A stretch of DNA of 64,000 nucleotides from Truepera sp. Lineage in GTDB: Bacteria; Deinococcota; Deinococci; Deinococcales; Trueperaceae. The DNA is taken from contig CBDCKW010000009.1 of assembly GCA_965218435.1 (NCBI GenBank), positions 1,472,001 to 1,536,000 of the forward strand, read 5' to 3'. The notes beneath the pieces are model-generated. The model ran no database searches, was not told the origin of the DNA, and saw nothing but the letters and a program-made list of their open reading frames with translations. Shown here in pieces: positions 20,147-46,512 of the stretch (within the stretch, counting starts at the first letter, position 1; each line of letters begins with the position of its first letter). The position numbers were made by a program, and so were the translations under genes.

Positions 20147-20155
20147 GCTGAGCCA

Positions 20156-25072: not shown

Positions 25073-25137
25073 CGTGTGTCGGGGAGCGGGTCTTCGCCCA
25101 AGCTGCGGTTCTTCCTACGAACTGCTAGAGGGAGCCG

Positions 25138-28204: not shown

Positions 28205-28765
28205 TCACGCCTCAAACAGTTCGGTAGGTTGTTTACCGTTAAGAAAGTGAGCGATAATCTCAGCGCGGCTTTTCATCCCCATCTTGTTAAGCAGGTGCGA
28301 CATATGCATCTTGACGGTTCCTTCGGTTATCCCAAGCTGTTCGGCAATCGCACGGTTCGACAGACCTTTAGCGATAAGTCTCAAAACCTCCCTTTCACGC
28401 GTGGTGAGCTGAGGTGTACTAAAACGGGCGAGCGTTTGAGTAAGCACGTGACGCTCCGCCCAGATTTCACCCCGCCTCACCGCTTCTAGCGCCTTGATCA
28501 GGATGAAACTGTCGTCTACCGGCCGCAGATAACCGCTGTAACGCTGCTGCAACAGCGCCACGGCGTCAGCGCGTTCGCCCTCGATCAGGGCAACCGTCGG
28601 CAGGTCGGAAGGTGGGGGATAGGGTGACGACAAGAGGGTCAGGTCGCAAAGTAAGAGTTCGGATGCTGAGGTTCGCTCCAGACTCGCTTCGACACCCGAA
28701 TGTAACAGCAGCGCCACAAGGGATTCTGCAAACACTCGGTAGTTGGACTGGACCCACACATGCAC
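28205..28765 (-). CDS. LuxR/NarL-family regulator with degenerate receiver domain
   Basis: LTTREREVL.LIAKGLSNRAIA..L.ITEGTVK.H HTH; N-terminus lacks the acidic pocket. Confidence 0.9.
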   Translation of the reverse strand: MHVWVQSNYRVFAESLVALLLHSGVEASLERTSASELLLCDLTLLSSPYPPPSDLPTVALIEGERADAVALLQQRYSGYLRPVDDSFILIKALEAVRRGEIWAERHVLTQTLARFSTPQLTTREREVLRLIAKGLSNRAIAEQLGITEGTVKMHMSHLLNKMGMKSRAEIIAHFLNGKQPTELFEA

Positions 28766-28864
28766 GGCTTGCTCCTCTAGGTTGCGATGAAAAGGTGATT
28801 AGGAAATGCCAGATATAGCTTGCTGAAGATTAACGAAATATTAATTCTTGATGAAACTGTCGTC

Positions 28865-28885
28865 TTGGTATTATCTTTATACCAA
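28865..28885. promoter_or_regulatory. Inverted repeat in the luxR / GT2 intergenic region
   Basis: TTGGTAT-N7-ATACCAA; a second palindrome TATCT-AA-AGATA at 29246-29257. Confidence 0.35.
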
Positions 28886-29417
28886 ATAATCCACTTTGTC
28901 AAGGTTTTGTCAGCTATGTGTACGCAACTAAAGTCGAGGACGCCGTAAGTACCGACGCCAACGTAAATATCTTCAGGCTTAAAGACGAATAGAAAGCTCG
29001 AGCCGACCCCAGTGAGTGCGGTGCGCCGATTGGCCTAGCCCGCTCCGCCAGTTTAGAGCTACTGCAACAGTTGGAGGAGGGACGTGCCAGACGGCTTTTT
29101 ATGCAGGCAACGCTGCTCTGCAGACCTTGGCCGCGCTCCGCAGGTTTGCAGAACCAGCCGACCGGAGCTGCGTTAATGACCCAAACTCGAGGGTCGCAAC
29201 AAGAGCTTAGCAAGGTACTTACGACCTAGATAAAAGGCAGGAGTGTATCTAAAGATATATACCAAAGGTTTATTCCTTGTACCCCCCTTCGTCGCTTGTG
29301 TAATTTAGCGTACAAACTCTAGGATGACGTTCAGCTGACAAAGAGGTGGCAATTCACTGAGTAATTGGTGAGTAGTCGATCAGCTAAATCTAAACTTCGG
29401 GGGGCAGGGGCGGAATC

Positions 29418-30650
29418 ATGACAGCATACAGCGCAGCCAAAGATCGGAGACAGCCAATGACGACGCTAGGCGAAGGGCTCGAGCCGACCGTTCAGCAGCC
29501 TAGTCTGGCGATCGTCGTCCCGACAAGGAACGAAGCGGGTAACGTGAAGCCGCTGCTCCAGCTTATCCACAAAGCCGTGGTTGACCTGCCGGTCGAGGTC
29601 ATCTTCGTCGACGACAGCACCGACGATACGCCGGACGTAATCGCGCAAATAGGCCGAGAGTTCCCCTTTAACGTCTCGGTCATCGTGCGCCCTTTTGAGC
29701 GGCGCAACGGTCTCGGGCTGGCCGTCGTCGAGGGCATCACGGCGGCCACCGCCGAATGGGTGTGTGTGATGGACGGCGATTTGCAGCACCCGCCCGAGGT
29801 CATCCCACAGCTGCTCGAGCACGCGCAGAAAACGGGCTCGACGCTCGTCGCCGCCAGCCGCCTGACCGACGGGGGCAGCACCGCCGGACTCTCGTGGCGG
29901 CGCAAAATCATCTCTTATACGCTCGCGCTCGCCTCACGAGTTCTTTTTCCCAGCCGTCTGCGGCAGCTGACCGACCCACTGACCGGATTTTTCCTGGTCA
30001 AACGAGAAGCGCTCGTCCCTGAAAGCTTGCAGCCCGAGGGCTTTAAGATTTTGCTCGAGATTCTCGTCCGCACCCCGCATCTGCGCTTGGCCGAACTCCC
30101 GTTCGAGTTTGGCGAAAGGTTAACCGGCGAAAGCAAGGCCAATACGCAAGAGGCGCTGAAGCTCTTTCGGCAGCTGGCGCGGCTGAGCCTCGAGCCGCAC
30201 CGGCACCTGCTGCGCTTTTTTATGGTCGGGGCGTCGGGTCTAGTGGTCAATACGCTGGCCCTGATGTTGGCGACCTTTGTCGGGTTGCATTACCTCGTCG
30301 CAGCAACCGTAGCGACGCAGACCTCGACCTTGTGGAACTTCGGGTTGCTCGAGACCTGGGCCTACAAGGGCCGCGAAGTCCGGCAAAAAGCGCGCTGGCA
30401 ACGCCTGGGCAGCTTCTTGGTGATGAATAACGCCGCGCTCCTTTTACGCGGGCCGCTGATGGTTCTGCTCATCTCACTCAACATGAACTACCTCGTCGCC
30501 AACGCCGTCACCCTGATCGCCATCGCCTTTTTACGTTACGCCGTATCGGACAGCCTGATCTGGCGTAACAGCAGCGCCACCTCGCCCACCGTCACCTCGC
30601 CCGCCGTCGCCGTCACCGCAGCCGTCAACACCGCCACTCAGGGAGAGTAA
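29418..30650 (+). CDS. GT2 polyprenol-phosphate glycosyltransferase (DPM1/Ppm1-like) fused to a GtrA flippase domain
   Basis: VVPTRNE, FVDDSTD, MDGDLQHPPE, DPLTGFF, GFKILLE, GESK; C-terminal RFFMVGASGLVVN...WNF 4-TM GtrA pattern. Confidence 0.9.
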   Translation: MTAYSAAKDRRQPMTTLGEGLEPTVQQPSLAIVVPTRNEAGNVKPLLQLIHKAVVDLPVEVIFVDDSTDDTPDVIAQIGREFPFNVSVIVRPFERRNGLGLAVVEGITAATAEWVCVMDGDLQHPPEVIPQLLEHAQKTGSTLVAASRLTDGGSTAGLSWRRKIISYTLALASRVLFPSRLRQLTDPLTGFFLVKREALVPESLQPEGFKILLEILVRTPHLRLAELPFEFGERLTGESKANTQEALKLFRQLARLSLEPHRHLLRFFMVGASGLVVNTLALMLATFVGLHYLVAATVATQTSTLWNFGLLETWAYKGREVRQKARWQRLGSFLVMNNAALLLRGPLMVLLISLNMNYLVANAVTLIAIAFLRYAVSDSLIWRNSSATSPTVTSPAVAVTAAVNTATQGE

Positions 30651-31747
30651 TGTTTTTTTATAACGTCCATAACTTGCTGCTGATCCGCTCCGTTCAAAGG
30701 CTGCCCGAACTCGCGTACTTCCGCACGCCACGCCTCGCCGCAGCACCTGATATCGACGTCCGTATCGAAGCCGACCCGAGCGCCTACAAAACGGACGCCT
30801 CGATCAGCTACGACGAGATTTTAGGTAGGTTTGGGTTCAGTATCGTCATCAACCGCCGTGAAGCCGCAACTGAGGTCATCGCCTCACCCCTGATCAACCG
30901 CTCGCCACACGTCCTTTATACCAACGTCGTCGAACCGCTGCTGCGTTGGGCGCTGGTCCGTAAAGGCTACGCGCTGATGCACGGGGCGTGTTTGGCCTTC
31001 GGCGCTAAAGCACTTTTTATTACCGCTCAGACCGACACCGGCAAAACCACGACGATTTTGCATACCCTGCGAAACAACCTCCGCAGCTGCCGCTTTTTAA
31101 GCGACGATATGACCATTTTTGCCGAGGACGGAACCGTTTACAGCTTTCCCAAACCGCTGACGGTCAGTCAGCACACGCTCCAGGCCGTTGGCGGCGCTGA
31201 CCTGTCGCTTGTTGAACGCAGCTTTTTACGCGTGCAGAGCCGGTTACACTCGCGTGAGGGTCGCCGCGCCGGGATGTGGCTCAGTAACATTCGGATGCCC
31301 GCTGCGACCATGAGCGCAGTTGTGCAGTGGCTGATTCCGCCACCCAAGTTTATGGTCGGTAAACTCGTTCCCGGCGCACAGCTAACCGAGCAGTCCCGAC
31401 TCGAGCAGATCGTGTTGATCGAGCGCGGCCCCGAGTCCGAACGTGAGCTTGCCGAAACCGAAAAGCTCGAGATTCTGATCGCCAACGCCGAGGACGCCTA
31501 CGGGTTTCCGCCGTATCCGTTGATCGCCGAGCAGTTAAGCCACTGGCAGGGTCAAGACCTGCACGAAGAGGAGAAACGGCTGGTACGCGGGGCGATTCGG
31601 GCGGTTCCCGGCGTCCTCTTACGGCGCGACGACTACGGCTGGTTTGAAAGGTTACCCCGGCTTATTCAAGCGGGCTTTCATGCCGACGTCCCGCCCGAAG
31701 CAACCTTGGCACAGGCTTTTCAGACTGCGCCTACTGCCGTCAACTAG
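30650..31747 (+). CDS. HprK-related P-loop protein
   Basis: LMHGAC, AQTDTGKTT Walker A variant, FLSDD; start overlaps the GT2 stop (TAATG). Confidence 0.65.
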   Translation: MFFYNVHNLLLIRSVQRLPELAYFRTPRLAAAPDIDVRIEADPSAYKTDASISYDEILGRFGFSIVINRREAATEVIASPLINRSPHVLYTNVVEPLLRWALVRKGYALMHGACLAFGAKALFITAQTDTGKTTTILHTLRNNLRSCRFLSDDMTIFAEDGTVYSFPKPLTVSQHTLQAVGGADLSLVERSFLRVQSRLHSREGRRAGMWLSNIRMPAATMSAVVQWLIPPPKFMVGKLVPGAQLTEQSRLEQIVLIERGPESERELAETEKLEILIANAEDAYGFPPYPLIAEQLSHWQGQDLHEEEKRLVRGAIRAVPGVLLRRDDYGWFERLPRLIQAGFHADVPPEATLAQAFQTAPTAVN

Positions 31748-31849
31748 GGTGGGCAGTTTGCTTACAGCCCTACCGACGTTGGTGTTGACTTGGGTGCAGC
31801 AGCCCAACAAAGGTAAGCGGACGCGACCAACAGCGGGCTCGAGCCAGCC

Positions 31850-33424
31850 ATGAGCGTCTCTAGATCAAGCTTTTCCTCGGCCGTAACGAGCCGGGATGGC
31901 AGTCGTTCGCGGATCGGTCAAACGACGCTGCAGCTGGTCGCCCTTGCCGCCGTTTTGCTGCTCGCCATCGGCGTCCGCGTCGCTTACCTCAACACCTTGG
32001 GGTATAACAGCGACGAAGCCGTCTATGCGGGCCAAGCCGCCGCTATCGCCCAAGACCCGGTACTCAGCGAAATCTTCCCGGTGTTTCGGGCGCACCCCCT
32101 GCTGTTTCAGTTTGTCTTGTCGCTTTTTTACAGTGTTTTCGGAACGAGCGACTGGCTGGGGCGGGCCGTCTCCGCAGCGGTAGGCGTCACTACGGTGTAT
32201 CTGGTCTACTGTTTGGGCGTCAGCCTTTACGGTCGCCGCGCCGGACTCTACGCCGGACTCTTTTTGGCGCTGATGCCCTACCACGTGATCGTCACGCGGC
32301 AGGTGCTGCTAGACGGGCCGATGGTCTTTTGCTCGACGCTCAGCCTATTTTTTATGGTTCGTTTTACGCAGACGCGGCGCGCGGAATGGTTGTACGCCGC
32401 AGCTGCCGGGATGGGCCTGACTTTTTTAGCCAAAGAGACGAGCATCCTGATGGTCGGGGCGATCTACGCATTTTTGGCGCTTTCCCCTAAGCTTCCAGTA
32501 CGGATTATCGACATCTTTATCTCACTCTTTACACTGGTCACGGTGATGGCCGCGTTTCCCCTGTCCGTCTCGCTGGCGGGAGGGGGCGGCGGCAAAACCC
32601 AGCAGTATTTGGTGTGGCAGCTTTTTCGCCGCCCCAACCACCCCTGGGACTTTTATCCGAGCGTCGTGCCGCCGGCAGTCGGTATCTTGGTTATCGCCTC
32701 CGCGCTGCTGGGCTTGTGGTTTTTACGCCGTGAGAACGGTTGGCGGGAAAAGCTGCTGGGGTTATGGATTTTGGTTCCGGTCGTGTTTTTCGAGCTGTGG
32801 CCGACCAAAGGGTTTCAGTATCTGCTACCCGCTGCGCCGCCGCTGGCACTCTTGGCGGCGCGCACGCTGGCCTATCTGCCGAAGCGCCGCCTGCGTGTTC
32901 GCCGCTGGCGTATACCGCAGTATCTGCCGGGGCTGTTAGGGGCCGGGGTGGTCGCCTCGAGCCTGTTTATCACCAGCTGGTCACGTATCGACCCCGCGCC
33001 GTCAACCACTTTTTTTGCCGGTTCAGGGGGCATCCCCGGCGGACGTGAAACCGGACTCTGGATTGACGCCCACGTGCCCCAGGGCGCGACCTTCGTCGCG
33101 ATCGGCCCCTCGATGGCCAATATTCTCAAGTTTTACGGGCACCGGCGGATGTTCGGCCTCTCGGTCAGCCCCAACCCACTGCACCGGAACCCGGCTTACG
33201 AACCCGTTTACAACCTCGACTATCAGATTCGCAGCGGCGAAGTTCAGTATCTGGTCTGGGATTCGTTTTCGGCCGGACGCACCAGCTTCTTTTCGGAAAC
33301 GCTCCTGCACTACGTGCAGAAATATCATGGCCGGGTTGTTCATCTCGAGGCAGTTCCTGTCCCTACACCCGACGGTTTAAGCAGCGACAAACCCATCATC
33401 ATTATCTACGAGGTGCGTCCGTGA
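31850..33424 (+). CDS. GT-C fold glycosyltransferase (ArnT/PMT_2-like)
   Basis: Multi-TM; SDEAVY, HPLLF, GR..S, LLDGP, LAKE, QYLLP. Confidence 0.85.
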   Translation: MSVSRSSFSSAVTSRDGSRSRIGQTTLQLVALAAVLLLAIGVRVAYLNTLGYNSDEAVYAGQAAAIAQDPVLSEIFPVFRAHPLLFQFVLSLFYSVFGTSDWLGRAVSAAVGVTTVYLVYCLGVSLYGRRAGLYAGLFLALMPYHVIVTRQVLLDGPMVFCSTLSLFFMVRFTQTRRAEWLYAAAAGMGLTFLAKETSILMVGAIYAFLALSPKLPVRIIDIFISLFTLVTVMAAFPLSVSLAGGGGGKTQQYLVWQLFRRPNHPWDFYPSVVPPAVGILVIASALLGLWFLRRENGWREKLLGLWILVPVVFFELWPTKGFQYLLPAAPPLALLAARTLAYLPKRRLRVRRWRIPQYLPGLLGAGVVASSLFITSWSRIDPAPSTTFFAGSGGIPGGRETGLWIDAHVPQGATFVAIGPSMANILKFYGHRRMFGLSVSPNPLHRNPAYEPVYNLDYQIRSGEVQYLVWDSFSAGRTSFFSETLLHYVQKYHGRVVHLEAVPVPTPDGLSSDKPIIIIYEVRP

Positions 33425-34785
33425 ACAAAGCTTCTCTGGTGCTACGCCTAGTGCTGTGCAGCTTAATGTGCGGTGTAGCAGGTGCAAAGGCGGCTCCCCT
33501 GGTGGCCCCGAACCCCAACACCCCCATCAAACACCTGGTCGTGCTGATGCAGCAAAACCGCACCTTCGACCACTACTTCGGAACTTACCCCGGGGCCGAC
33601 GGGATACCGGGCGATGTTTGTCTGCCGTTTAGTATCACCAAACCCGAAGCGGACGCGTGCGTCAAACCGTATTACCTCGGCGACGGTCAATCGGCTGATT
33701 TAAGTCACACCTCGACGATCTTTTGGCGGCAGTTGAACGGCGGCGCAATGAACGGCTTTGTTCACGCGCTACGCTTGCGCAAACAAGACGGTGCGCTGGC
33801 CATGGGCCACTACGACGACCGCGAGCTCCCTTACTACTGGAACTTGGCCGACGAATTCGTGTTGTTCGACCGTTTTTTTAGCTCGGCTCACGCGGGCAGC
33901 CTCTGGAACCGCACCTTCTGGGTTGCCGGTCAAGCCTTGGGCGAGGAAAACCGGATTCCCAAAGCAGGCTTCGGCGACGTACCGACCATCTTCGACCGCT
34001 TGGAAGCCAAGGGCATCTCATGGAAGTTTTATATCAACAACTACAACCCGCAGCTCAACTACCGGATGCTAAAAAACAGTCCCTTTCTGCACCCGCAGGT
34101 TCAGTGGGTACCCCTGCTAAGCATGGACCGCTTTATCGACGATCCCAAGCTGTCGAGCCATATCGTCGATATGAGCGAATACTTCAAGGACTTAAATAAC
34201 GGCACTCTCCCCGCCGTATCGTACATGCTCGCGCTGGGCGCGACCGAACAACCCCCGGCACAGCCCGAACCCGGTCAGCGGTTTGTCCGTAAAACACTTC
34301 AGGCGCTGATCCAGAGTAAAGCGTGGCGCAGCTCCGCTTTTGTGCTCACCTACGACGACTGGGGCGGCTGGTACGACCATGTTTTACCACCCCAAGTCGA
34401 CGCCTATGGGTACGGTTTTAGAGTCCCGGCGCTCCTAGTCAGCCCTTACGCCAAACGGGGGTATATCGACAGCACCACCTTGGATTTCACCTCGATCTTA
34501 AAATTTATCGAGCAAAATTACGGCCTCGAGCCGCTCGCCACCCGGGACGCCCAAGCTAACAGTTTGGACAGCGCCTTTGACTTTACCCAAGCGCCCCGCG
34601 CCGCCGAGTTTTTCTCCTTTTTTAGAGCCGAAAGCAAAACGAGGCCGAAGCCGCGCATAGGGATGATCTACGCCACCTACGGTACAGGGATCGGCTTGGC
34701 GTTGGCCGTTTTTCTCTTTGCCGCCGTGCGCGCGCGTCCCGGCTCACGCCGTAACCTGCGCAACCGGTCGGTAGGCTTAAGATGA
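33421..34785 (+). CDS. Phospholipase C / AcpA-type phosphoesterase family protein with C-terminal TM anchor
   Basis: PIKHLVVLMQQNRTFDHYFG, LADEFVLFDRFF, TYDDWGGWYDHV.PP, GFRVP...SPY. Confidence 0.85.
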   Translation: MNKASLVLRLVLCSLMCGVAGAKAAPLVAPNPNTPIKHLVVLMQQNRTFDHYFGTYPGADGIPGDVCLPFSITKPEADACVKPYYLGDGQSADLSHTSTIFWRQLNGGAMNGFVHALRLRKQDGALAMGHYDDRELPYYWNLADEFVLFDRFFSSAHAGSLWNRTFWVAGQALGEENRIPKAGFGDVPTIFDRLEAKGISWKFYINNYNPQLNYRMLKNSPFLHPQVQWVPLLSMDRFIDDPKLSSHIVDMSEYFKDLNNGTLPAVSYMLALGATEQPPAQPEPGQRFVRKTLQALIQSKAWRSSAFVLTYDDWGGWYDHVLPPQVDAYGYGFRVPALLVSPYAKRGYIDSTTLDFTSILKFIEQNYGLEPLATRDAQANSLDSAFDFTQAPRAAEFFSFFRAESKTRPKPRIGMIYATYGTGIGLALAVFLFAAVRARPGSRRNLRNRSVGLR

Positions 34786-36149
34786 GCGGCCGCACACGCT
34801 CCCGGCTGCTACGAGCGGCGTGCCTTTTAGCGTTCAGCTTACTGGCGCTGCCCAAACCAGCTGCAGCGCAAAGTTGGCTGCAGCAAGACACGGTGATTAC
34901 CTTTGCGCCGCTGGCAGCACAGCCGCTGGGTCGTTCGGTCGGCGTAACCTTAACCCTTACCGACACACAGGGAACCGCGCTCCCGTACCGGCAACTCGAG
35001 GTTTTCCTCGGCGCTGACCAAGCGAAGCGCACGCGCACGAACCGTGAGGGCGTCGCCAAAGTCCGGCTCGAGGCCGGTTTGTCCGCAGGCCGGTATACGC
35101 TTAGCGCCACCTTCGCCGGTTATGAAAACTACCTCAGCAGCGCGGCAACCACTACTCTCGTGGTCGCACCGGCAGTCCTGACGGTGCGCACGGTGCCGCC
35201 GCTGGCAGGGGTCAACTTTTTGCTGGGTGGGCGCGCGTTTAGCACTGCGGCGGACGGCAGCGGCCAGATCAGCGTAAGCGAGAGCGGGCGTTACCACTTA
35301 GAGGTACTACCCTGGCGTACCAAAGCTGCGCGGGCGACCTTTATCCGCTGGGACAACGGGATTTTTGAGGCCGGTCGCAGCGTAACACTCCCCCGAGACA
35401 GCCTGATAGGGGCGGGCTTTAACGTTGAACAGCTGGTTACACCGACCTTCGTCGACCTCGAGCAACACCCCGTTTCGGCGCGGCGGGTTTCAGCCGTGAC
35501 GTTTAAGAGCAGCTACGGTACAACCGAATCGTTTGGGGAACCGTCGGGCAGTGTCAAGCCCGTCTGGGTCCAAGCCAGCCAGGTCGTGCGCCGCCCGACC
35601 GGGCTCGAGGCCAAAAAGATCAGCTACGTCCTCGAGAGCGTGATGATCGACGGGTCTAACGTCGTCAACCGGGGCCAGCAACGTTTCTTGGTCAACCGCA
35701 AGGGGGCTTGGAAACTTAAGCTGCTCCTCTACGACGCCCGTTTCCGGGCGGTAGACGCACTCTTCGGGTTTCCGCTGGGGGCCGGCGTGACTTTAGAATA
35801 TCCCGACGGACACACCAAACTGTTGCGCTTCGGCGCAGCCGACACCGTTGCGACAGGCCCACTGGCCCGTGGCCTTTATAAAGTCCAGGTGGTCGGCGCA
35901 CACGGGATGGCCCCACTCACGCCCGTCGCCCTCTCGCGCGATCAGGCGGTAGAGCTGAAGGTTCTAAGCCGCCTCGATATGGGGGTAGGGCTGGGGCTCG
36001 GCCTTACCTTGGCACTGAGTTTGCTGCTCCTCGGTAGACCGCAGCTGATCGGGTTGAAACGCAAAACTGGACGTTCCGAATTTCCCGACCGGAGACGTGC
36101 GCCGCTTAGACCCGAGCACTCCCCCTCCAAATCCTCTGAATGGCGCTGA
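34782..36149 (+). CDS. Secreted beta-rich (Ig-like) hypothetical protein with C-terminal TM helix
   Basis: Signal peptide ending AAAQ, G.YTLSATFAG Ig-like pattern, hydrophobic helix plus basic tail; ATGA overlap. Confidence 0.7.
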   Translation: MSGRTRSRLLRAACLLAFSLLALPKPAAAQSWLQQDTVITFAPLAAQPLGRSVGVTLTLTDTQGTALPYRQLEVFLGADQAKRTRTNREGVAKVRLEAGLSAGRYTLSATFAGYENYLSSAATTTLVVAPAVLTVRTVPPLAGVNFLLGGRAFSTAADGSGQISVSESGRYHLEVLPWRTKAARATFIRWDNGIFEAGRSVTLPRDSLIGAGFNVEQLVTPTFVDLEQHPVSARRVSAVTFKSSYGTTESFGEPSGSVKPVWVQASQVVRRPTGLEAKKISYVLESVMIDGSNVVNRGQQRFLVNRKGAWKLKLLLYDARFRAVDALFGFPLGAGVTLEYPDGHTKLLRFGAADTVATGPLARGLYKVQVVGAHGMAPLTPVALSRDQAVELKVLSRLDMGVGLGLGLTLALSLLLLGRPQLIGLKRKTGRSEFPDRRRAPLRPEHSPSKSSEWR

Positions 36150-36150
36150 T

Positions 36151-37311
36151 GTGACGACGCCCCGCTACCTCACGCCTCAGCTCGGCATACGGCTCGGTTT
36201 TACCCCGGTCAGAGGGGCCGAAAGGAAGGTGCTTTGGTGTCTAATAACGATGCTATTTGTGGTGCAACCGGTGAGAGCCAGTACCTTGCCCACTGAAGAC
36301 GTTCGCAATCCCGTTCCCCTGATGGCGTACTACTATATCTGGTACAGCGAAACCTCGTGGGACCGCGCCAAAACCGACTATCCGGTGCTGGGGCGCTATA
36401 GTAGCGACGACCGGAGCGTGATGGAGCAGCACGTGCGTTGGGCTAAAGCGGCGGGTATCGGCGGCTTTATCGTAAGCTGGAAAAGCACCCCTATACTTAA
36501 CCGCCGTCTGGAGAGGCTGCTCGAGGTCGCCGCCGCGGACGACTTTGCGATCTGGATTATCTATCAAGGTCTCGACTTTTACCGCAGACCGCTCCCGCTC
36601 AACCGTGTGGCGCACGATTTAAGCTACTTCGCCAACCACTACGCCGCTCAGCCTGCACTACAGCTCTACGACCGGCCCGTCGTGATCTGGTCGGGTACTT
36701 GGAAGTTTAGTCCAGAAGACGTGGCCACAGTTACGAAACCTTACCGCGACCGGCTCTATCTGCTGGCCTCTGAACGCAATCTGCGGGGGTATCTGCGGCT
36801 CGCTAAATTGGTTGACGGCAACGCCTACTACTGGTCTTCGGTCAACCCCGATACCTATCCGGGCTACCAAGCCAAACTTGATGAACTGGGCAAAGCCGTC
36901 CATAACCACGGCGGGTTTTGGGTCGCTCCGGCAGCCCCCGGCTTTGACGCGCGCCTGATCGGGGGCACGACTGTGGTTAAACGCAAGGGGGGCGAGACCT
37001 TGCGGCGACAACTCAGCGCAGCGGTGCATTCTGCGCCCGACGCTATCGGGCTGATCAGCTGGAACGAATTCAGTGAAAACAGTCAGATCGAACCCAGCGA
37101 AACCTACGGCAGCCAAGCACTCGAGCTGCTCAGCAACCGAGAAAACGGCGGGATCGAGGCCGCTGAAGTTGACTCGAGCGATCCCGGAACGACCGACCCG
37201 CGCAACTTTTACGGGCTTTCCGTGGTGGGCGGGTTGGCTGTTTTTATCGTCGGCAGCGTCGTGCTGGCCGTAACGCGGCAGCTCGGCAAAGCAGCAGGGA
37301 GTAAGGTATGA
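36151..37311 (+). CDS. GH99/GH71-like glycoside hydrolase with C-terminal TM
   Basis: AYYYIWY, P.LGRYSSDD, AGIGGFIVSW, PGFD, ISWNEFSENSQIEP (GH99-type NExxE); GTG 36151 taken as likely start (ORF open from 36097). Confidence 0.78.
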   Translation: MTTPRYLTPQLGIRLGFTPVRGAERKVLWCLITMLFVVQPVRASTLPTEDVRNPVPLMAYYYIWYSETSWDRAKTDYPVLGRYSSDDRSVMEQHVRWAKAAGIGGFIVSWKSTPILNRRLERLLEVAAADDFAIWIIYQGLDFYRRPLPLNRVAHDLSYFANHYAAQPALQLYDRPVVIWSGTWKFSPEDVATVTKPYRDRLYLLASERNLRGYLRLAKLVDGNAYYWSSVNPDTYPGYQAKLDELGKAVHNHGGFWVAPAAPGFDARLIGGTTVVKRKGGETLRRQLSAAVHSAPDAIGLISWNEFSENSQIEPSETYGSQALELLSNRENGGIEAAEVDSSDPGTTDPRNFYGLSVVGGLAVFIVGSVVLAVTRQLGKAAGSKV

Positions 37312-39128
37312 GTCCTCACGCCAAGTTCTTTTGCAACAAAGTCTTTCGTATTGGTCACGTCTACTTGCTAAACGCAGTGGCGCTGGGATTACTTGTCTTA
37401 CTTTCAAGCTGTAATTCCAGCGGCGGCACGCCGAGCGGGATCATCTACAGCACTACCGCCGACAGCCGCGTCAGCGCAAGTACCGATGACGTTGAGGAAA
37501 CGGCGGATGGGAGCATCCTGCGCTCGAGCCCTGAGCTCAACTTGATCGAAGCTGATGTTAAGCTGGTCGGCCTCCGCTTTACGGGCGTCAATATACCCAG
37601 GGGCGCGGCCATCACCGACGCTTACGTCAGCTTTACCACAGCTGAAGCGTCGAGTGAAAACGCGTCTTTTAGCCTCCGGGGGGTCGCTAGAGACGACCCG
37701 CCGACCTTTATCAGCGCGCGCACCAACGTCTCGTCGCAACCGACAACGACCGCTGCGGTCACCTGGTCGCCCGCGCCGTGGTCGCTGCCCGAGGTATCGG
37801 GAGCTGAGCAGCAAACAGCAAATCTAGCCCCTATCATTCAGGAACTGGTCGACCGACCCGGCTGGTCGCGCGGCAACGCGCTGGCACTTGTTATCTCGGG
37901 CAGCGGAGCGCGGGTGGCCCGGTCGTTTGACGGCAGCCGCGCCAAAGCGCCGCTGCTGCACGTCAATTTTACGGCAGACGAGCGCGTCAGTATCGACACC
38001 TTTAGCGCCCAACCCGCTAAGGTTCAGCAAGGCCGTGAGGTGACCTTCTCGTGGTCTCTCAGCGCCGCAGGCGGCGCGGTACGCTGCACGCTGGACGCCG
38101 ACGGGGACGGTGTTTCTGACTACACCATTGCAGACTGTCTGAGCACCAAGACGCAGACCCACAGCTACCAGCTGGCCGGCTACTACCCGGCAACGCTCAC
38201 CGCAACAGCCGCCAGCGGCGCAACGGCGACCGCCACCGCCGAGACGAACGTGAGCACTCCGGCTTCGGTGACAATTGCTGCTGCGGGGGACATCGCGTGT
38301 GACCCGGCTTCCGAATACTTCAATCACGGGGAAGGCGTGGCCGACAGGTGCCACATGAAAGCGACCTCGGAGCTGCTGCTCGCCCTCCAACCAGACGCGG
38401 TCTTGACCTTAGGCGACAATCAGTACAACAGCGCCACGCTGAATAACCTGAGGCAATCCTACGACCCAACCTGGGGACGGCTCAAGGCGATCACGCACCC
38501 CGCTGCGGGGACGCACGAATACACCGCGAGCGAAGCGGACGAGGAGGACGGGACCGGGAACGGCGCAGGCTATTTCGCCTATTTCGGCGCGGCGGCGGGC
38601 GATCCGGCCAAGGGCTACTACAGTTTCGATTTGGGTGCGTGGCATATCGTCGTACTGAACGCCAACTGCTCGAGGGCGGGGGGTTGCGAGAAAGGTTCAC
38701 CCCAGGAGCAGTGGTTAAGAGCCGACCTCGCCGCCAGCCCCAAGCTGTGTACGCTGACGGTGATGCACTACCCGCGTTTCAGCTCGGGCAAGCACGGCAA
38801 CATCGTCAGAAATACCGACTTTTGGCAAGCCCTAGCCGATGCCGGCGCAGAGCTGGTGCTTTCCGGCAACGATCATGATTACGAGCGTTTTGCGCCGCAA
38901 ACCCCGAACGGCACACTCGACGCCGAACATGGAATCCGCCAGTTCGTCGTCGGCACCGGCGGCAAAGAGTTATACAGCTTCGGCACCTTGCAACCACACA
39001 GCGAGGCGAGAATCAGCAACGTTTACGGCGTTCTCAAACTAAATTTGCACCCGGAAAGTTACGACTGGGCGTTCGTACCGGAAGCGGGTCAAACCTCGAG
39101 TGATAAGGGGACGGGTCTATGCCACTAA
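37308..39128 (+). CDS. Lipoprotein: beta-sandwich module + PKD-like + metallophosphoesterase (variant motifs)
   Basis: Lipobox LLSSC; AAAGDIAC, LGDNQY, GTHE, MHYP, SGNDH, QFVVGTGG. Confidence 0.85.
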   Translation: MSPHAKFFCNKVFRIGHVYLLNAVALGLLVLLSSCNSSGGTPSGIIYSTTADSRVSASTDDVEETADGSILRSSPELNLIEADVKLVGLRFTGVNIPRGAAITDAYVSFTTAEASSENASFSLRGVARDDPPTFISARTNVSSQPTTTAAVTWSPAPWSLPEVSGAEQQTANLAPIIQELVDRPGWSRGNALALVISGSGARVARSFDGSRAKAPLLHVNFTADERVSIDTFSAQPAKVQQGREVTFSWSLSAAGGAVRCTLDADGDGVSDYTIADCLSTKTQTHSYQLAGYYPATLTATAASGATATATAETNVSTPASVTIAAAGDIACDPASEYFNHGEGVADRCHMKATSELLLALQPDAVLTLGDNQYNSATLNNLRQSYDPTWGRLKAITHPAAGTHEYTASEADEEDGTGNGAGYFAYFGAAAGDPAKGYYSFDLGAWHIVVLNANCSRAGGCEKGSPQEQWLRADLAASPKLCTLTVMHYPRFSSGKHGNIVRNTDFWQALADAGAELVLSGNDHDYERFAPQTPNGTLDAEHGIRQFVVGTGGKELYSFGTLQPHSEARISNVYGVLKLNLHPESYDWAFVPEAGQTSSDKGTGLCH

Positions 39129-39152
39129 TCAGCCATTAAATATTGACGAGCC

Positions 39153-41513
39153 GTGCAAAAAAACTTTTGTATAAACCGGGGAGAAAGACAGCTACTTATG
39201 TACAAATATCTGAGAGCAACCTTAGCACTGGGCAGCTCGCTGCTGCTTTTCGGTTGTAGCAGCCAGCTCCAATCTGGGCCACCTTTACCTTTGCTGGAAA
39301 CAGGAGTCAGCAACTACGTTCTAGACGTTCGGGTCGCCGCGAGCAGTGACGACGCCGAGGAGAGCGTTAACAGCGGTGGTGTGACCCGCTCGAGCACCAC
39401 GCTCGACCTGGTTCGCAGCAGCACAAATCAGACCGTCGGCTTGCGTTTCACTGGCCTCACCATCCCCGCCGGTGCAACGATCACGAACGCCTACGTCCAG
39501 TTTAAAGCCAATGCATCGACCTCGGAGGCGACCAGCTTGACGGTCCAAGGCCAGACAGCGGACAACTCACCGACCTTTAGCGGGTCTCTTTATAACGTCT
39601 CCGCGAGAGCTAAAACTACGGCTTCCGTGGCGTGGTCACCCGCCGCCTGGACCTCGGGAGCTGAGGAGGCGGCACAAAGAACGCCCAACCTCGCTCCCAT
39701 CCTCCAAGAAGTTGTAGGAAGGTCGGGTTGGTCGAGCGGCAACGCGCTGACGCTTATCGTGACCGGGTCGGGGCGACGAGCTGCTTTTTCCTATGATGGG
39801 AGCCAGGCCGCCGCACCGCTGCTCCACATAGAATATAGTGTCACCGACGGTGGCGGCACTACGACACCCACCGTAGAGGATAGAGTTTCAGCGAGCAGCG
39901 ACGACGCCGAGGAAAATGTTACGAACGGTGGTGTCACCCGCTCGAGCACCACGCTCGAGCTCGTCCGCAGCACTACAGATCAGACCGTCGGGCTGCGCTT
40001 CGCCGACTTAGCCCTGCCTCGAGGGGTCGCCATCACCAACGCTTACGTTCAGTTTACGGCGAGTAAAACAACCTCAGAGGCGACCTCTCTAACCATTCAG
40101 GGTCAGGCTGCGGACAATCCAACAAACTTTAGCGGGACTTCATACAACGTCTCTGCAAGAGCCAGAACCACGGCTTCGGTGGCGTGGTCACCCGCCGCCT
40201 GGACTTCAGGAGCTGCCGGTACGGTGCAGAGAACCCCAAACCTCACTCCCATCATCCAGGAGATCGTCAGCCGACCCGGTTGGCGGAGCGGCAACGCCCT
40301 TGCACTGATTATCACCGGCTCGGGGCAGCGGGTCGCCCGGTCTTACGACGGCGAGCAGGCCGCAGCACCGCTCCTTCACCTCGAGTACAGCGCGACGGAA
40401 ACCCCGCCCAGTGTAACCCGCTTTAGTGCAAGTCCGGGCACGGTCGTCAAGGGCGGACAGGCGCACTTTTCCTGGTTGGTCTCCGACCCTGATGGTGGTC
40501 CGCTGCGCTGCACGTTAGACGCCAACGGCGACGGTGTGGCCGACTACGCAATCAGCGACTGCCGCACCACCACCTCGCAGACGCATACCTATGCGGCAGC
40601 GGGGCGCTACTGGCCCACGCTGACAGTCAAGGATTCAACGAACGCCGTGGACACAGCTACTCTGAGCTTCCACGTGACTAACAGCACCTCCGTAACGGTC
40701 GCGGCTGCCGGTGACATCGCCTGCGATCCGCTTGAATTAGGTTACAAAGGTGGTGTAGGTACAGCTACTAGATGCCATATGAACGCTACCTCGAGTCTTG
40801 TCCGCAATATAAACCCTGAAGCCGTCTTTACCTTGGGCGACCAGCAGTACTCCGATGGGACGCTGGAAAAATTTATGCAGGTCTACGACCAAACCTGGGG
40901 ACAGTTTAAGGGCATCACCTACCCCGCAGTCGGTACGCACGACACCTCTGGGGGCTACTTCGCCTACTTCGGTGCGGCTGCCGGAAACCCTTCAAAGGGC
41001 TATTACAGCTACGACCTCGGTGCTTGGCATGTCGTCGTCCTTAACACCAGCTGTTCGCGCGCCGGGGGCTGCGGCAGCGGCTCACCACAGGAGCGGTGGC
41101 TAAAAGCCGACCTCGCGGCCAACCCCAAAACGTGTACGCTGGCAGTGATGCACTACCCACGGTTTAGCTCGGGGAAAAACGGCAGCATCACCTCGGGTAT
41201 CCCGTTCTGGCGCGATCTTTACGACGCGGGCATCGAGTTCGTGCTGTCCGGCAACGACCATCACTACGAACGCTTTGCGCCGCAAACGCCGGACGGCGCG
41301 CTCGACACCGAACATGGAATCCGCCAGTTCGTCGTCGGCACGGGAGGCAAGGAGTCTTACGCCCTCAATACGCCTCTACCCAACAGCGAAATAAGGATTG
41401 CCAACACATTCGGTGCCCTGAAACTCAATCTTCAACCGACCAGCTACACCTGGCAGTTTGTCCCCGAAGCGGGCAAAACGGCCTCCGACAGCGGGAGCAG
41501 CACGTGTCACTAG
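39153..41513 (+). CDS. Lipoprotein: two tandem beta-sandwich modules + PKD-like + metallophosphoesterase (variant motifs)
   Basis: Lipobox LFGC; two SSDDAEE...APLLH repeats; GDIAC, GDQQY, GTHD, GNDH. Confidence 0.85.
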   Translation: MQKNFCINRGERQLLMYKYLRATLALGSSLLLFGCSSQLQSGPPLPLLETGVSNYVLDVRVAASSDDAEESVNSGGVTRSSTTLDLVRSSTNQTVGLRFTGLTIPAGATITNAYVQFKANASTSEATSLTVQGQTADNSPTFSGSLYNVSARAKTTASVAWSPAAWTSGAEEAAQRTPNLAPILQEVVGRSGWSSGNALTLIVTGSGRRAAFSYDGSQAAAPLLHIEYSVTDGGGTTTPTVEDRVSASSDDAEENVTNGGVTRSSTTLELVRSTTDQTVGLRFADLALPRGVAITNAYVQFTASKTTSEATSLTIQGQAADNPTNFSGTSYNVSARARTTASVAWSPAAWTSGAAGTVQRTPNLTPIIQEIVSRPGWRSGNALALIITGSGQRVARSYDGEQAAAPLLHLEYSATETPPSVTRFSASPGTVVKGGQAHFSWLVSDPDGGPLRCTLDANGDGVADYAISDCRTTTSQTHTYAAAGRYWPTLTVKDSTNAVDTATLSFHVTNSTSVTVAAAGDIACDPLELGYKGGVGTATRCHMNATSSLVRNINPEAVFTLGDQQYSDGTLEKFMQVYDQTWGQFKGITYPAVGTHDTSGGYFAYFGAAAGNPSKGYYSYDLGAWHVVVLNTSCSRAGGCGSGSPQERWLKADLAANPKTCTLAVMHYPRFSSGKNGSITSGIPFWRDLYDAGIEFVLSGNDHHYERFAPQTPDGALDTEHGIRQFVVGTGGKESYALNTPLPNSEIRIANTFGALKLNLQPTSYTWQFVPEAGKTASDSGSSTCH
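39339..40390 (+). repeat. Internal tandem domain duplication, period 552 bp (184 aa)
   Basis: GCGAGCAG.GACGACGCCGAGGA at 39339 and 39891; a third homologous module lies in the 37308 gene (~37470-37970). Confidence 0.85.
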
Positions 41514-41562
41514 CTACCCCTGACCGGCTTAATTTCATCCGCTAACTCAGGAGACCTTAACC

Positions 41563-42570
41563 ATGCGCGTCAAATTGCAGCCAACGTCGTTTATCGCAGT
41601 CCTTCTCTTTCTCTCTGGCTGTATAACCAGTGCTACCAGCTATAGCATAGCGACGGCTGCTTACAACCCTACTGCCGACCGCACTGCGCCCTCGGTAGCC
41701 GTCGGTGACGACACTGTGGCCATCGCCGCAGCAGGCGACATCGCCTGTGACCCCGACGCCCGCCTTTTCAACGGCGGCGTCGGCACAACCCACAGTTGTC
41801 ATATGAAAGCCACCTCGGACTTGCTGCTGGACATGGCACCCGCGGCCGTCCTCACGCTCGGTGACAATCAGTACGAGAGTGCCTCTTACGAAAACTTTAT
41901 GGCGTCTTTTGACCGTTCGTGGGGACGGCTCAAAAACAAACTCTATCCTGCTATCGGCAACCACGAGGGCGAATCGGCGGACGCTGGGGAGGGCTACTGT
42001 GAGTATTTTGGCGCAATAGCCAACTGCAACGCCGACGGTTCGCAGGCAGGGTCGGCTTACTACTCGTTCGAGGTAGGCCGGTGGCACCTCGTCGTGCTCA
42101 ACTCGAACTGCAGTGCCGCGGGTGGCTGTGATGTCGGCAGCCCGCAGTATCAGTGGCTGGTAGCCGACCTCGCCGCGCACCCGAGCAAATGCACCCTCGC
42201 TTATTGGCATCACCCGCGCGTCAGCTCCGGTGATCACGGCAACCACACCCGTATGGCTGACATTTTCAGCGCACTCTACAACGCCGGGGTCGAGCTTGTC
42301 CTCAGCGGGCACGACCACGATTACGAGCGCTTCGCGCCGCAAAACCCGGACTTGGGGGCCGACCCCAAAAAGGGCGTCAGGCAGTTCGTAGTGGGAACCG
42401 GGGGCAAGAACCTCTATACCTTTAACAGCGAGGAACCGAACAGCGAGGTGATGAATTCACAAACCTTCGGCGTTCTTAAACTGACGCTGCATCCGGAAAG
42501 TTACGACTGGGAGTTTGTCCCGGAAGCTGGTAAAACCTTTACCGATAAGGGGAAAGGCTTGTGTCACTGA
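41563..42570 (+). CDS. Metallophosphoesterase lipoprotein (canonical motifs)
   Basis: Lipobox LSGC; GDIAC, GDNQY, GNHE, WHHP, GHDH. Confidence 0.9.
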   Translation: MRVKLQPTSFIAVLLFLSGCITSATSYSIATAAYNPTADRTAPSVAVGDDTVAIAAAGDIACDPDARLFNGGVGTTHSCHMKATSDLLLDMAPAAVLTLGDNQYESASYENFMASFDRSWGRLKNKLYPAIGNHEGESADAGEGYCEYFGAIANCNADGSQAGSAYYSFEVGRWHLVVLNSNCSAAGGCDVGSPQYQWLVADLAAHPSKCTLAYWHHPRVSSGDHGNHTRMADIFSALYNAGVELVLSGHDHDYERFAPQNPDLGADPKKGVRQFVVGTGGKNLYTFNSEEPNSEVMNSQTFGVLKLTLHPESYDWEFVPEAGKTFTDKGKGLCH

Positions 42571-42657
42571 CAGATCACGCAACGACACACCGGGCCGTCA
42601 CCACCGCTAAAGCCTGGTCAGGCACTCACTTAGCGACAAAAGAAAGGTGTATACATC

Positions 42658-43719
42658 ATGTCATTTGTAGCCGTCATAATGGCCGGTGGCTCAGGGCAGC
42701 GGTTCTGGCCCCTCTCGACCGCCGCCAGACCCAAGCAGTTTCTCGACCTCGAGCGCTGCGGCCACACCCTGCTCCAAGCTACCTTCGGGCGCTTGCAAGC
42801 ACTGACCGGGGGACCTGAACAAACCTTTGTCATTACCGGGGAACGCTACGCTGAGCTGGTTTTTGAGCAGCTGCCCGAACTGCCCCCGGAAAACTTGCTG
42901 CTCGAGCCCACCGGCCGCGACACCGCGCCCGCAGCGGCGCTCGCCGCGCTCGAGCTGCGCGCCAGAGTCGGCGACGCTATCATGGGGCTCTTCCCCTCGG
43001 ATCACCGTGTCGCCGACGTGAGCAGCTTTCAACACACGTTGCGGCAGGCTGCCTCGCTGACCGAGGCCACCCGCGGCATCGTCACGCTCGGTATCAAACC
43101 CGACCGCCCCGCAACGGGCTACGGCTATATCGAACAGGGTGAGCCGGTAGAGGGCGGTTACAAGGTTGCCCGGTTTGTCGAAAAACCGGATTTGGCGAGC
43201 GCCCAAGCGTACTTAGAGACGGGGCGTTACAGCTGGAATGGCGGCATCTTTGTGTGGCACGTGCAGACCATTTTAGACGAGCTGCGCCGCTACGCGCCCG
43301 GCCTCTTAACCCCGCTTACCGAAGCGCACGGCGCGGGGCGGGTTCACGAGGTTTTTCCCGACTTGCCAAAAATCAGTATCGATTACGCGGTGATGGAGCG
43401 AACCCAAAAAGCCTTCGTGGTTCCGGCTGACTTCGGCTGGGATGATGTGGGCGACTGGCAGGCACTCGAGCGCTTGTTACATAAAGAACACGGCGACCCC
43501 GACACCGTAACCAATACCGTCGTAGGCCAGCACATCGGGCTCGAGACGTCCGGCAACATCATCTATACGGAGAGCGAAGAGGATATCGTCGCCACCTTAG
43601 GCGTTGAAAACCTGGTCATCGTCAAGCGGCACAACGCTGTACTGTTGCTGCGTAAAGACCGCGTACAGGACCTCAAGCAGCTTTTGGCCGACGAAAGACT
43701 GCTCAATTTCCCGGTTTGA
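42658..43719 (+). CDS. manC: Mannose-1-phosphate guanylyltransferase
   Basis: IMAGGSGQRFWPLS...PKQFL, EP.GRDTAPA, PSDH, TGYGYI, FVEKP, SIDYAVME, WDDVGDW. Confidence 0.95.
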   Translation: MSFVAVIMAGGSGQRFWPLSTAARPKQFLDLERCGHTLLQATFGRLQALTGGPEQTFVITGERYAELVFEQLPELPPENLLLEPTGRDTAPAAALAALELRARVGDAIMGLFPSDHRVADVSSFQHTLRQAASLTEATRGIVTLGIKPDRPATGYGYIEQGEPVEGGYKVARFVEKPDLASAQAYLETGRYSWNGGIFVWHVQTILDELRRYAPGLLTPLTEAHGAGRVHEVFPDLPKISIDYAVMERTQKAFVVPADFGWDDVGDWQALERLLHKEHGDPDTVTNTVVGQHIGLETSGNIIYTESEEDIVATLGVENLVIVKRHNAVLLLRKDRVQDLKQLLADERLLNFPV

Positions 43720-43883
43720 CCCGGTACACCCGAAACCGTTTCACCGGCAAAGACGAACGGGATTGTCCGGCGTTCTGAGCGTTTTCGCGTTAGAAAATAC
43801 ATTGAGCCCATTTGCGCTGCACCTAGCCCCTGCCAAGGCGGGGGCAAACGCGGCGCTAAGACACGACCGGGAAAACAACCAAC

Positions 43884-44867
43884 ATGCGCATAAACACTAG
43901 GCCAGCCCGACAACACCTCTCAGTCTCAGCTACGTTCATGACTGTGATTTTCGTAACTATGAGTTTTGTGCTGCTACTCGCTGCGTGTCAGGCGAACCGG
44001 GTGTCGGTCCCAGTCACGTTCCCTCATCCGCCTCACACCAACGTCACCTTGCCCACTCGAGCCGCTTTTTACTATCCGTGGTATCCGGAAACCTGGCGGG
44101 TCAACGGTAAGCACGTCGTTTATCATCCGGCGCTGGGTTATTACGACAGCGACGCCTCAGATGTTATCAGTGCGCACATCAAGGCGCTCGACTACGCTAA
44201 AGTCAAAGTGGCTATCGTCTCATGGTGGGGCCGGGGGACACACCACGAGCAGCTGCGTATTCCTCAACTGCTCACCCAAACGCAGCGCCTAGATTCGCCG
44301 CTCAAGTGGGCGCTGTACTACGAGAAAGAAGGGGTCGGCGACCCGAGCGTCAGCGAGCTTCAGGCCGACCTAAAATATCTCAAAGCGTATGTCGGCCCGA
44401 GCTACGCGGTCGTAGACGGCAAGCCGGTCGTCTTCGTCTACAACACCGACGATACCGACTGCGAGGTAGCCAGGCGGTGGCGCGCGGCGGCTGCGGACTG
44501 GTACGTCGTGCTCAAGGTTTTCTCGGGCTACCGGGACTGTTTTGCACAACCCTCGAGCTGGCATCAGTACGCGCCTGCACGGGCTACCGACCGGCAAACC
44601 GGCTTTGCCTACAGCATCTCACCCGGCTTCTGGCGTGCCGACGAAGCCGCGCCGCGCCTGCCCCGGAACCTTACTCGCTGGCGGCAAAATATCCGGGAGA
44701 TGGTGGTGGCCGGTGATCCCTGGCAGCTGGTCACGACCTTTAACGAATGGGGTGAAGGCACCGCCGTAGAGGAGGCGAAAACGTGGGAGAGAGAGCCTTA
44801 CGGCCGCTATATCGGCGCACTGGCAACTGACGGTGCCGAGGCTGTCACCCTGCCGGAGACGCCGTAA
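43884..44867 (+). CDS. GH99-like glycoside hydrolase lipoprotein
   Basis: Lipobox LAAC; AFYYPWY, P.LGYYDS, VSWWG, SPGF, TFNEWGEGTAVE. Confidence 0.78.
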   Translation: MRINTRPARQHLSVSATFMTVIFVTMSFVLLLAACQANRVSVPVTFPHPPHTNVTLPTRAAFYYPWYPETWRVNGKHVVYHPALGYYDSDASDVISAHIKALDYAKVKVAIVSWWGRGTHHEQLRIPQLLTQTQRLDSPLKWALYYEKEGVGDPSVSELQADLKYLKAYVGPSYAVVDGKPVVFVYNTDDTDCEVARRWRAAAADWYVVLKVFSGYRDCFAQPSSWHQYAPARATDRQTGFAYSISPGFWRADEAAPRLPRNLTRWRQNIREMVVAGDPWQLVTTFNEWGEGTAVEEAKTWEREPYGRYIGALATDGAEAVTLPETP

Positions 44868-45351: not shown

Positions 45352-45416
45352 CCGAGGCGAGGGGCTTAGACCCGGACGCACCACGGCATCTGAACAAGGT
45401 CACCAAGGCGAGGTAG
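45352..45416 (+). repeat. Right copy of the duplicated SIS-gene 3' end
   Basis: Translates EARGLDPDAPRHLNKVTKAR* versus EAKGLDPDAPRHLNKVTKTM* of the SIS gene. Confidence 0.85.
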
Positions 45417-46278: not shown

Positions 46279-46512
46279 GCGTAACAACCAGCTGGATCAA
46301 GTTGCTGTTCGCTTCTTCTCTACTTCAGATTGGGCATAGTGAGTGGCTAACAGGTGGTCGGTGAGACTTCGGCGTAGGGCAACGACCGCTTGGACTTCGC
46401 CCAAAACCTATCGCGGCTCTTTCCATAAGCTAGCAGCCATGAACTATATGAAGCGGCAGCCGGGTTGGGCCTGTGGCGGGCAGCCGTCTGATGAAGGGGT
46501 GGTACCACCCTC

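Follow-up and report, generated by a model that had tools for sequence, protein, structure and literature searches.

The locus at 28205..44867 of the window, the 64,000-nucleotide stretch of Truepera sp. contig CBDCKW010000009.1 that was analysed as a whole, is predicted to be a transmembrane glycosylation system of the multi-component type, with a kinase in addition. Its core is made up of six genes, encoding a GT2-GtrA protein, a kinase of the PEPCK/HprK fold, a GT-C glycosyltransferase, an AcpA/PLC-like phosphoesterase, an Ig-like protein with a transmembrane segment and a GH99-like hydrolase, and the order of these genes is conserved far beyond chance. Very probably, GDP-mannose is the donor, the route is lipid-linked and an alpha-mannosidic product is formed outside the membrane, three points taken jointly and common to every explanation considered below. 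As the best explanation, which we place just short of an even chance, a line is proposed in which lipid-linked mannose is synthesised, phosphorylated, flipped, transferred and edited.

The kinase-like protein served as marker, and a profile from 56 homologues was searched against the GTDB genome collection. At least 558 stretches were matched; counts out of 80 refer to the best 80 loci, and counts out of 54 to those of the 80 with at least 8 kb downstream and at least 1.5 kb upstream. All five partners of the kinase (GT2-GtrA, GT-C, PLC, Ig and GH99a) were found in 46 of the 54 adequately flanked loci, 44 of which have the order of the window. An AcpA-type phosphoesterase and the Ig protein were each present in 48/54, and a metallophosphoesterase in 44/54. 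The genes of the window are as follows.

28205..28765, minus strand: LuxR/NarL-type regulator, divergent, accessory (GerE, E 1.7e-21)
29418..30650, plus strand: GT2-GtrA, predicted type-III-DPMS-like polyprenyl-phosphate-mannose synthase and flippase, core (PfDPMS, E 8.7e-55)
30650..31747, plus strand: PEPCK/HprK-fold P-loop kinase, cytoplasmic, core and defining part (model fold, invariant motifs)
31850..33424, plus strand: GT-C glycosyltransferase, ArnT-like fold, DE motif D55-E56, core (PMT_2, E 7.6e-25)
33421..34785, plus strand: AcpA/PLC-family phosphoesterase, signal peptide and C-terminal anchor, core (PF04185, E 1.5e-73)
34782..36149, plus strand: Ig-like beta-sandwich protein, signal peptide and C-terminal anchor, core (weak Big_3_5 match)
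36097..37311, plus strand: GH99-like hydrolase GH99a, C-terminal anchor, core (PF16317, 55.6 bits)
37308..39128, plus strand: MPE1, lipoprotein-like metallophosphoesterase with one N-terminal beta-domain and PKD
39153..41513, plus strand: MPE2, lipoprotein-like metallophosphoesterase with two copies of the MPE1-type beta-domain
41563..42570, plus strand: MPE3, lipoprotein-like, purple-acid-phosphatase-like metallophosphoesterase, motifs intact (Metallophos, E 5.5e-8)
42658..43719, plus strand: ManC, mannose-1-phosphate guanylyltransferase, accessory in other genomes
43884..44867, plus strand: GH99b, second GH99-like protein, lipoprotein-like, accessory (38.4 bits)

All 12 open reading frames were verified at these coordinates, LuxR on the minus strand and the other 11 on the plus strand. 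An earlier sequence-only reading had described 11 co-oriented, overlap-coupled genes divergent from LuxR, and this layout was confirmed: the GT2/kinase junction reads TAATG, GT-C/PLC reads GTGA, and PLC/Ig and GH99a/MPE1 both read ATGA. The Ig and GH99a genes overlap by 53 nt when the longest start is taken, and the remaining intergenic gaps are 24-164 nt. Promoter and terminator scans of the locus gave chance-level results only. Profile scores upheld the assignments GT2 plus GtrA, PMT_2, Phosphoesterase, two Glyco_hydro_99 and ManC, and none of the 12 proteins matched the Wzx, Wzy or capsule ABC exporter families that had been reported absent. The HprK-like assignment was supported by the fold of the model, with a weak profile match (TIGR04352, E 1.7e-4), and the Ig-like assignment stood, but with a Pfam score under the cut-off. 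Three metallophosphoesterase lipoproteins are present as claimed, although Pfam Metallophos was matched in MPE3 only and MPE1 and MPE2 lack conserved predicted metal ligands.

The same reading had treated the whole run as one self-contained, regulated cluster with the kinase as one gene among many. The kinase gene is there but is the defining part, usually fused to the synthase-flippase; the six-gene core is conserved, but ManC (5/80 loci) and GH99b (9/80) are accessory. Self-containment holds only in part: ManC was found nowhere in the genome but in the island, yet none of the island genes matched a phosphomannomutase family. Regulation by LuxR gained no support, a close homologue being found in 1/80 loci only, and conservation does not favour LuxR as a dedicated regulator; a 48% paralogue adjoins a beta-domain copy elsewhere in the genome.

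Carrier loci were found in Trueperaceae, in Chloroflexota, in Actinomycetota, where most are Thermoleophilia, and in a single bin of Pseudomonadales; the closest named relatives are Trueperaceae, which is probably the host's family. The spread is patchy: 4 of 61 relatives have the system, the window's own genome counted, and full-length matches were found in 8/401 genomes of the phylum of G061 and 3/251 of the phylum of G062 (centre genome counted). In a quick kinase tree, for which SH-aLRT was the only support measure, the Trueperaceae sequences fell among those of Anaerolineae and Caldilineae, in a group of 13 rows supported at 96%; because of this mixing the tree is compatible with horizontal exchange, and it gives no direction. 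No match to the kinase was found among the 72,556 plasmid and 50,697 phage records searched. A matching gene order, split over separate contigs, was seen in genome G002, in which ManC is present at 87-88% identity.

Predicted synthase, flippase and kinase

When GT2-GtrA was compared with the PDB, the top match was the dolichol-phosphate-mannose synthase (DPMS) of P. furiosus, over both domains (residues 26-383, E 8.7e-55; ArnC, 1e-9). Its GtrA domain scored 57 bits against the PF04138 cut-off of 26, identifying a GtrA-type predicted flippase. The mannose-, metal- and lipid-phosphate-binding residues of PfDPMS, as assigned in the accessible text of PMC5526996, are kept in 72/72 orthologues and the guanine-binding Asp in 64/72. 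With these residues, the GT2 domain is predicted to be a GT-A enzyme making a polyprenyl-phosphate sugar. ManC in the island is the only copy found in the genome, and none was found in 3/5 congeners. Because the PfDPMS residues are kept and the genome's only ManC lies in the island, GDP-mannose is the likely donor; the residue pattern favours it over the non-mannose donor that had been named as the counter-case.

The protein was next compared with the motifs that define type-III DPMS, reported from archaea only in the available portion of PMC12992685. Counterparts of R131, S135, K178 with KIL, and R117 are present (R148, R162, S166 and K210, in 72/72 orthologues), as are those of the membrane-pocket residues N248 and N277 (N278 in 72/72 and N307 in 68/72). 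At position 2 of the DADxQHPP motif the window protein carries Gly in place of Ala, whereas 41/72 orthologues have the motif unchanged; its SRY motif is SRL. The Phe338 gate is replaced by Ala370, with Thr in 52/72 orthologues and Phe in 4. The window protein thus probably works like a type-III DPMS yet is not filed as one, as the Phe gate and two motif letters fail. The full motif list was found in 6 of 112 aligned bacterial proteins (L199, L205, L209, L212, L213 and L047); judged by these motifs, predicted type-III-like DPMS are not confined to archaea.

Two intramembrane arginines of the GtrA domain, R344 and R373, occur in 77/77 close kinase-linked proteins, and each in 0/25 Chloroflexota GT2-GtrA proteins without a kinase in the fetched locus; these controls are the rest of 30 loci from 81 matching genomes, and the loci reach only about 1.5 kb to each side. 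Among divergent kinase fusions, R344 was present in 5/9 and R373 in 8/9. R373 corresponds to PfDPMS R341, given in the accessible part of PMC12992685 as the binder of the phosphate that flipped Dol-P-Man carries. Because of the second arginine, the pocket suggests a phosphorylated lipid-mannose cargo, with this residue available for a second phosphate.

The model of the kinase (pLDDT 89) matched ATP-dependent PEPCK with a Z score of 15.3 (root-mean-square deviation 4.5, 283 aligned residues) and the HprK catalytic domain with 14.5 (2.6, 134 aligned). H111, K132, T133, D152 and D153 do not vary across the 56 rows aligned, and the His, P-loop and Asp-Asp align to their PEPCK equivalents in a profile alignment of weak score (E 4e-4). 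Fold, catalytic His, P-loop Lys-Thr and Asp-Asp place the protein in the PEPCK/HprK superfamily. It falls outside HprK-related kinase A (TIGR04352; 20.8 bits against a cut-off of 200), its sequence profile found no match in the PDB, and its matches in the Atlas were unnamed clusters only. Many homologues carry the annotation PF27840. Up to an E value of 1e-30, the kinase family comprises 236 clusters formed at 50% identity.

From PEPCK and HPr kinase/phosphorylase, with which fold and motifs are shared, the locus kinase differs by a P-loop Asp at position 4, the lack of the lysine pair, a basic insert and fusion to a membrane glycosyltransferase. The insert is amphipathic, with helices at 187-213 and a net charge of about +4.6. 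At the position of the two PEPCK lysines, reached by ungapped extension of the register, lies an invariant Thr91-Asn92 amid conserved polar residues, which would fit a neutral polyol acceptor.

In 59/80 loci the kinase shares one open reading frame with GT2-GtrA or GtrA. Among 43 representatives chosen mainly for length among 150 listed, further fusion partners were seen: GT2 alone, GtrA placed before or after the kinase, and GT-C. The kinase is also accompanied by other GT-Cs, in 3 loci by a GT-C-GH8 fusion together with a processive GT2, and elsewhere by a DUF2142 protein. Because it is fused to the synthase-flippase and is found with varied GT-Cs, and without PLC in some genomes, the kinase belongs to the donor module.

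Several variant arrangements were observed. A variant operon in L067, L075 and L077 encodes a GT2-GtrA-kinase fusion, a processive GT2, a GT-C-GH8 fusion, an Ig protein and a CBM96-phosphoesterase, with a divergent GH5; genome G065 has both this GT-C-GH8 variant and the standard operon. L133 and L135 have a divergent GT2-GtrA-kinase fusion directly 3' of topoisomerase I, followed in L133 by GT2, methyltransferase and DUF2142 genes, among which no phosphoesterase was recognised. L127 (G074:C17:6608-19010) holds two HprK-like kinases that are only distantly similar (27-28% over about 90-170 residues). Both adjoin a GT2, and one lies behind a CBM96 protein; these pairs suggest a wider class of kinase-GT2 glycan loci.

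Transferase and surface proteins

The GT-C model (pLDDT 90) was closest to ArnT (TM 0.67), followed by STT3/AglB, ALG12/ALG9 and Pmt4. D55 and E56 are present in 66/66 sequences, and the protein has the GT-C fold with the acidic loop motif of multi-component systems. It belongs to neither the ArnT (GT83) nor the Pmt (GT39) family: identity to ArnT is 15-16%, with 23 bits against a cut-off of 567, and no PMT_4TMC or MIR domain was matched. By profile ArnT ranks ahead of Pmt (4.5e-10 and 2e-6). Many Arg, Lys and His residues are invariant. From beta-linked lipid mannose an inverting GT-C produces alpha-mannosides, which are the substrate class of GH99.

The PLC-like protein matched Phosphoesterase PF04185 with 248 bits and AcpA with E 7.9e-39. 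S160, D312 and D313, which we take to be the Ser/Thr nucleophile and the Asp-Asp pair of AcpA/PLC enzymes, are present; the metal-binding Glu of AcpA (E43) is Q45 in the window and Glu in 49/59 orthologues. The Ig protein had weak PDB matches only, its Atlas matches were unnamed or Ig-like, and it was assigned to no known family. GH99a and GH99b scored 55.6 and 38.4 bits against the Pfam cut-off of 33. GH99a matched GH99 structures with E about 1e-9, some subsite residues differing in the alignment, and has the ExxE glutamate pair, presumably catalytic: E324 and E327 are kept in 57/58 rows, the remaining row being a gap. A 58% paralogue of GH99b adjoins another phosphoesterase elsewhere in the genome, where the GH99b-MPE pair has paralogues too.

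PLC, Ig and GH99a each have a hydrophobic C-terminal anchor and, by eye, an N-terminal signal-like stretch. The three form a single open reading frame in 6 Actinomycetota loci (L052, L062, L068, L073, L074 and L083), and Ig and GH99a are fused in 15. Because the fusion junctions retain anchor and signal-like segments with Ala-x-Ala-type ends, these fusions may be candidate polyproteins cleaved by signal peptidase. Variable secreted multidomain proteins follow the core.

Among the metallophosphoesterases, MPE3 matched purple acid phosphatase (E 2e-9), and the catalytic domains of MPE1 and MPE2 are 54-60% identical to that of MPE3. In both, the Asn of the GNH motif, kept in 32/32 homologues, is replaced along with two further His; we assume that these residues are metal ligands. 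The Asn-to-Thr change in MPE1 is common to the G002 orthologue, and between G002 and the window third codon positions diverge more than first and second (0.52 and 0.22). For these two reasons the MPE1 and MPE2 genes are judged to be maintained, perhaps as binding proteins. A beta-rich domain of approximately 175 residues, with no Pfam match, lies at 37460-37970 and 39322-40400 in MPE1 and MPE2. It has 9 matches in the genome and occurs in 15/61 relatives, all of one family; 11 of these 15 have no kinase, and the idea of the glycan as a tether for beta-domain proteins gained no support. CBM96 was found in 1/61 relatives only, within that genome's cluster.

Proposed pathway and its alternatives

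In the proposed line, GDP-mannose is probably used by GT2 to make polyprenyl-phosphate-mannose; phosphorylation of the lipid-bound mannose would fall to the linked kinase, and the GtrA domain would flip the phospho-mannose lipid across the membrane. GT-C would then build the flipped unit into a surface glycan. Removal or transfer of the phosphate would be the task of the AcpA-like domain, and cleavage or release of the chain that of the GH99-like domain, with the Ig protein as a possible spacer or scaffold. That the kinase acts on the head group of lipid-linked mannose, so that phospho-mannose is what passes through the membrane, is a tentative assignment, a little less probable than its negation. 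The broader claim of extracytoplasmic, lipid-linked mannosylation with phospho-remodelling parts, made from the sequence at the outset, was supported by the co-occurrence across phyla and the likely GDP-mannose donor. A wider form, in which one polypeptide synthesises, phosphorylates and flips a novel polyprenyl-phosphate-mannose-phosphate and a surface polyprotein processed by signal peptidase both sets and removes mannose-phosphate marks, as a code, on the envelopes of Chloroflexota, Thermoleophilia and Trueperaceae, is rather unlikely.

A number of observations weigh against the proposed line. In G466, G467 and G469 the kinase is found with no PLC orthologue, and it also lies in other contexts such as that of the processive GT2 and GT-C-GH8 fusion. 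Its P-loop reads AxTDTGKT, not GxSGxGKT, and nucleotide use is a prediction. The window PLC has Q45 and Q277 where 49/59 orthologues have Glu and 51/59 have His, and four Chloroflexota copies lack most of the site; because of these losses the phosphoesterase step may be dispensable. Together with the substituted ligands of MPE1 and MPE2, the PLC changes tell against the line in its simple form. GH99 similarity is distant (E about 1e-9), with GH71 scores at the cut-off too. The two-arginine contrast is confounded by descent, the kinase-linked proteins being close kin, and among the nine divergent kinase fusions R344 is missing in four and R373 in one.

Private carrier recycling is an improbable alternative: the kinase would be a polyprenol kinase that re-phosphorylates, for the fused synthase, carrier set free outside by the phosphoesterases, the product being a plain alpha-mannan or a mannosylated acceptor. 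The kinase-synthase fusion and the basic amphipathic insert are in keeping with this, as is a secreted phosphoesterase that is near-constant while its families swap (AcpA 48/54, metallophosphoesterase 44/54, PAP2 in 2 loci). Precedent is found in UpsH, a metallophosphoesterase-like protein that frees undecaprenyl phosphate (PMC11898649, accessible text), and free undecaprenol is described in Gram-positives in the available part of PMC9876793. However, the extra flippase arginine is left unexplained, the residues conserved in the kinase (His, Asn, Gln, Ser and Tyr) have polar side chains, unlike those of a hydrophobic groove, and the kinase module is kept where no PLC orthologue was found.

We give the same low probability to regulated protein mannosylation, in which GT-C would target secreted modular proteins (Ig, CBM96, phosphoesterase) and the kinase would be a regulatory HprK-like protein kinase or ATPase that governs the synthase. 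HprK is itself a protein kinase, PMT_2 and PMT were matched by a GT-C with the DE motif, Pmt and oligosaccharyltransferase structures are among its fold matches, and variable secreted multidomain proteins follow the core. Set against these are the preference for ArnT over Pmt by both profile and fold, the lack of PMT_4TMC or MIR matches, and the PEPCK-like N-terminal domain of the kinase, which is missing from the HprK core (283 and 134 aligned residues); the obligate AcpA and GH99 partners would also go unexplained. Least probable, and very much so, is an ArnT-like lipid modification in which the kinase makes a phosphorylated lipid acceptor that GT-C caps with mannose and PLC and GH99 uncap: ArnT is the nearest GT-C structure, its acceptor is a lipid phosphate and many basic GT-C residues are invariant, but the sequence is far from ArnT by identity and score, and a tall, Ig-spaced GH99 would suggest a substrate off the membrane surface.

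No published description of the kinase-linked gene set was found in a literature search made largely without subscription journals and supplements, in agreement with the initial impression that the combination was not a described system. Comparisons with published systems refer to the accessible parts of the papers cited. Like the GT-A, GtrA and GT-C systems of PMC8035078, the locus combines these three functions in one operon, and the first external loop of its GT-C bears an acidic motif; what it has beyond them is a kinase of the PEPCK/HprK fold, most often as part of the same polypeptide, together with a conserved set of three anchored ectoproteins. The accessible text of that review nowhere uses the word 'kinase'. 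With P. furiosus type-III DPMS (PMC5526996, PMC12992685) it shares GT2, a four-helix GtrA, and the catalytic, mannose-binding, N248, N277 and R341 residues, whereas the locus protein is bacterial, has Ala at the Phe338 gate and a second membrane Arg, and carries an appended kinase. A lipid-linked monosaccharide and an ArnT-like GT-C fold are shared with ArnC/ArnE-F/ArnT, but the donor residues are those of DPMS, not ArnC, no Arn pathway genes are present, and most hosts belong to Chloroflexota and Actinomycetota. Pentofuranose GT136 systems (PMC11127046) also have three components, with a lipid donor from a phospho-sugar route; theirs is derived from phosphoribosyl pyrophosphate and served by a MATE flippase, in contrast to the likely GDP-mannose and proposed kinase-added phosphate here. 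The gsf cluster of Actinoplanes missouriensis (PMC13390465), 11 genes in an actinomycete, likewise performs GtrA-dependent glycosylation; it was rejected as the same system, having Stealth, acyltransferase and methyltransferase genes and listing, in the text available, no such kinase, phosphoesterase or GT-C-fold enzyme.

If the proposed line is right, transmembrane glycosylation would gain a kinase step, perhaps along with a new activated donor, and a large orphan kinase family would have its first substrate. GtrA flipping of polyprenyl-phosphate-mannose is treated as open in the accessible text of PMC12992685, and the natural synthase-flippase-kinase fusions and the two-arginine contrast offer a handle on it. 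The locus also points to a possibly undescribed surface glycan in environmental lineages, of which cultured carriers exist (L048, L056).

Island boundaries and genomic surroundings

The block is flanked by a 64-nt direct repeat whose copies are 77% identical.

27931..27994, plus strand: left boundary, direct-repeat copy at the 3' end of the SIS/GlmS-like gene (26961-27995)
45352..45415, plus strand: right boundary, direct-repeat copy, a second copy of the SIS gene 3' end

Both copies match orthologous SIS gene ends about equally (46-53/64), and no third copy at 38/64 matches or more was found in the genome. In the regions fetched from five same-genus genomes, a single repeat copy was present, with no GT2 or LuxR match. 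The repeat reads as an att-like integration scar round an inserted island of 17.4 kb. No tyrosine integrase was found inside the island, all 23 matches in the genome lying outside it.

To the right of the island, 45589-46280 holds a frameshifted, truncated fragment of an RlmL-like methyltransferase (84% over 671 nt to a copy on the same contig). To the left, 19031-27995 is occupied by a peptidoglycan-recycling cluster of NamZ, NlpC/P60, AnmK, GH3, beta-lactamase-family, GntR, MurQ-like and SIS genes, syntenic in 4/5 congeners. A phosphomannose isomerase at 15430-16461, outside the island and 13 kb upstream, could feed ManC. In a sugar-utilisation region, 54695-56809 encodes a protein of 704 aa that begins with an ADP-ribosylglycohydrolase domain and whose C-terminal half is unannotated.

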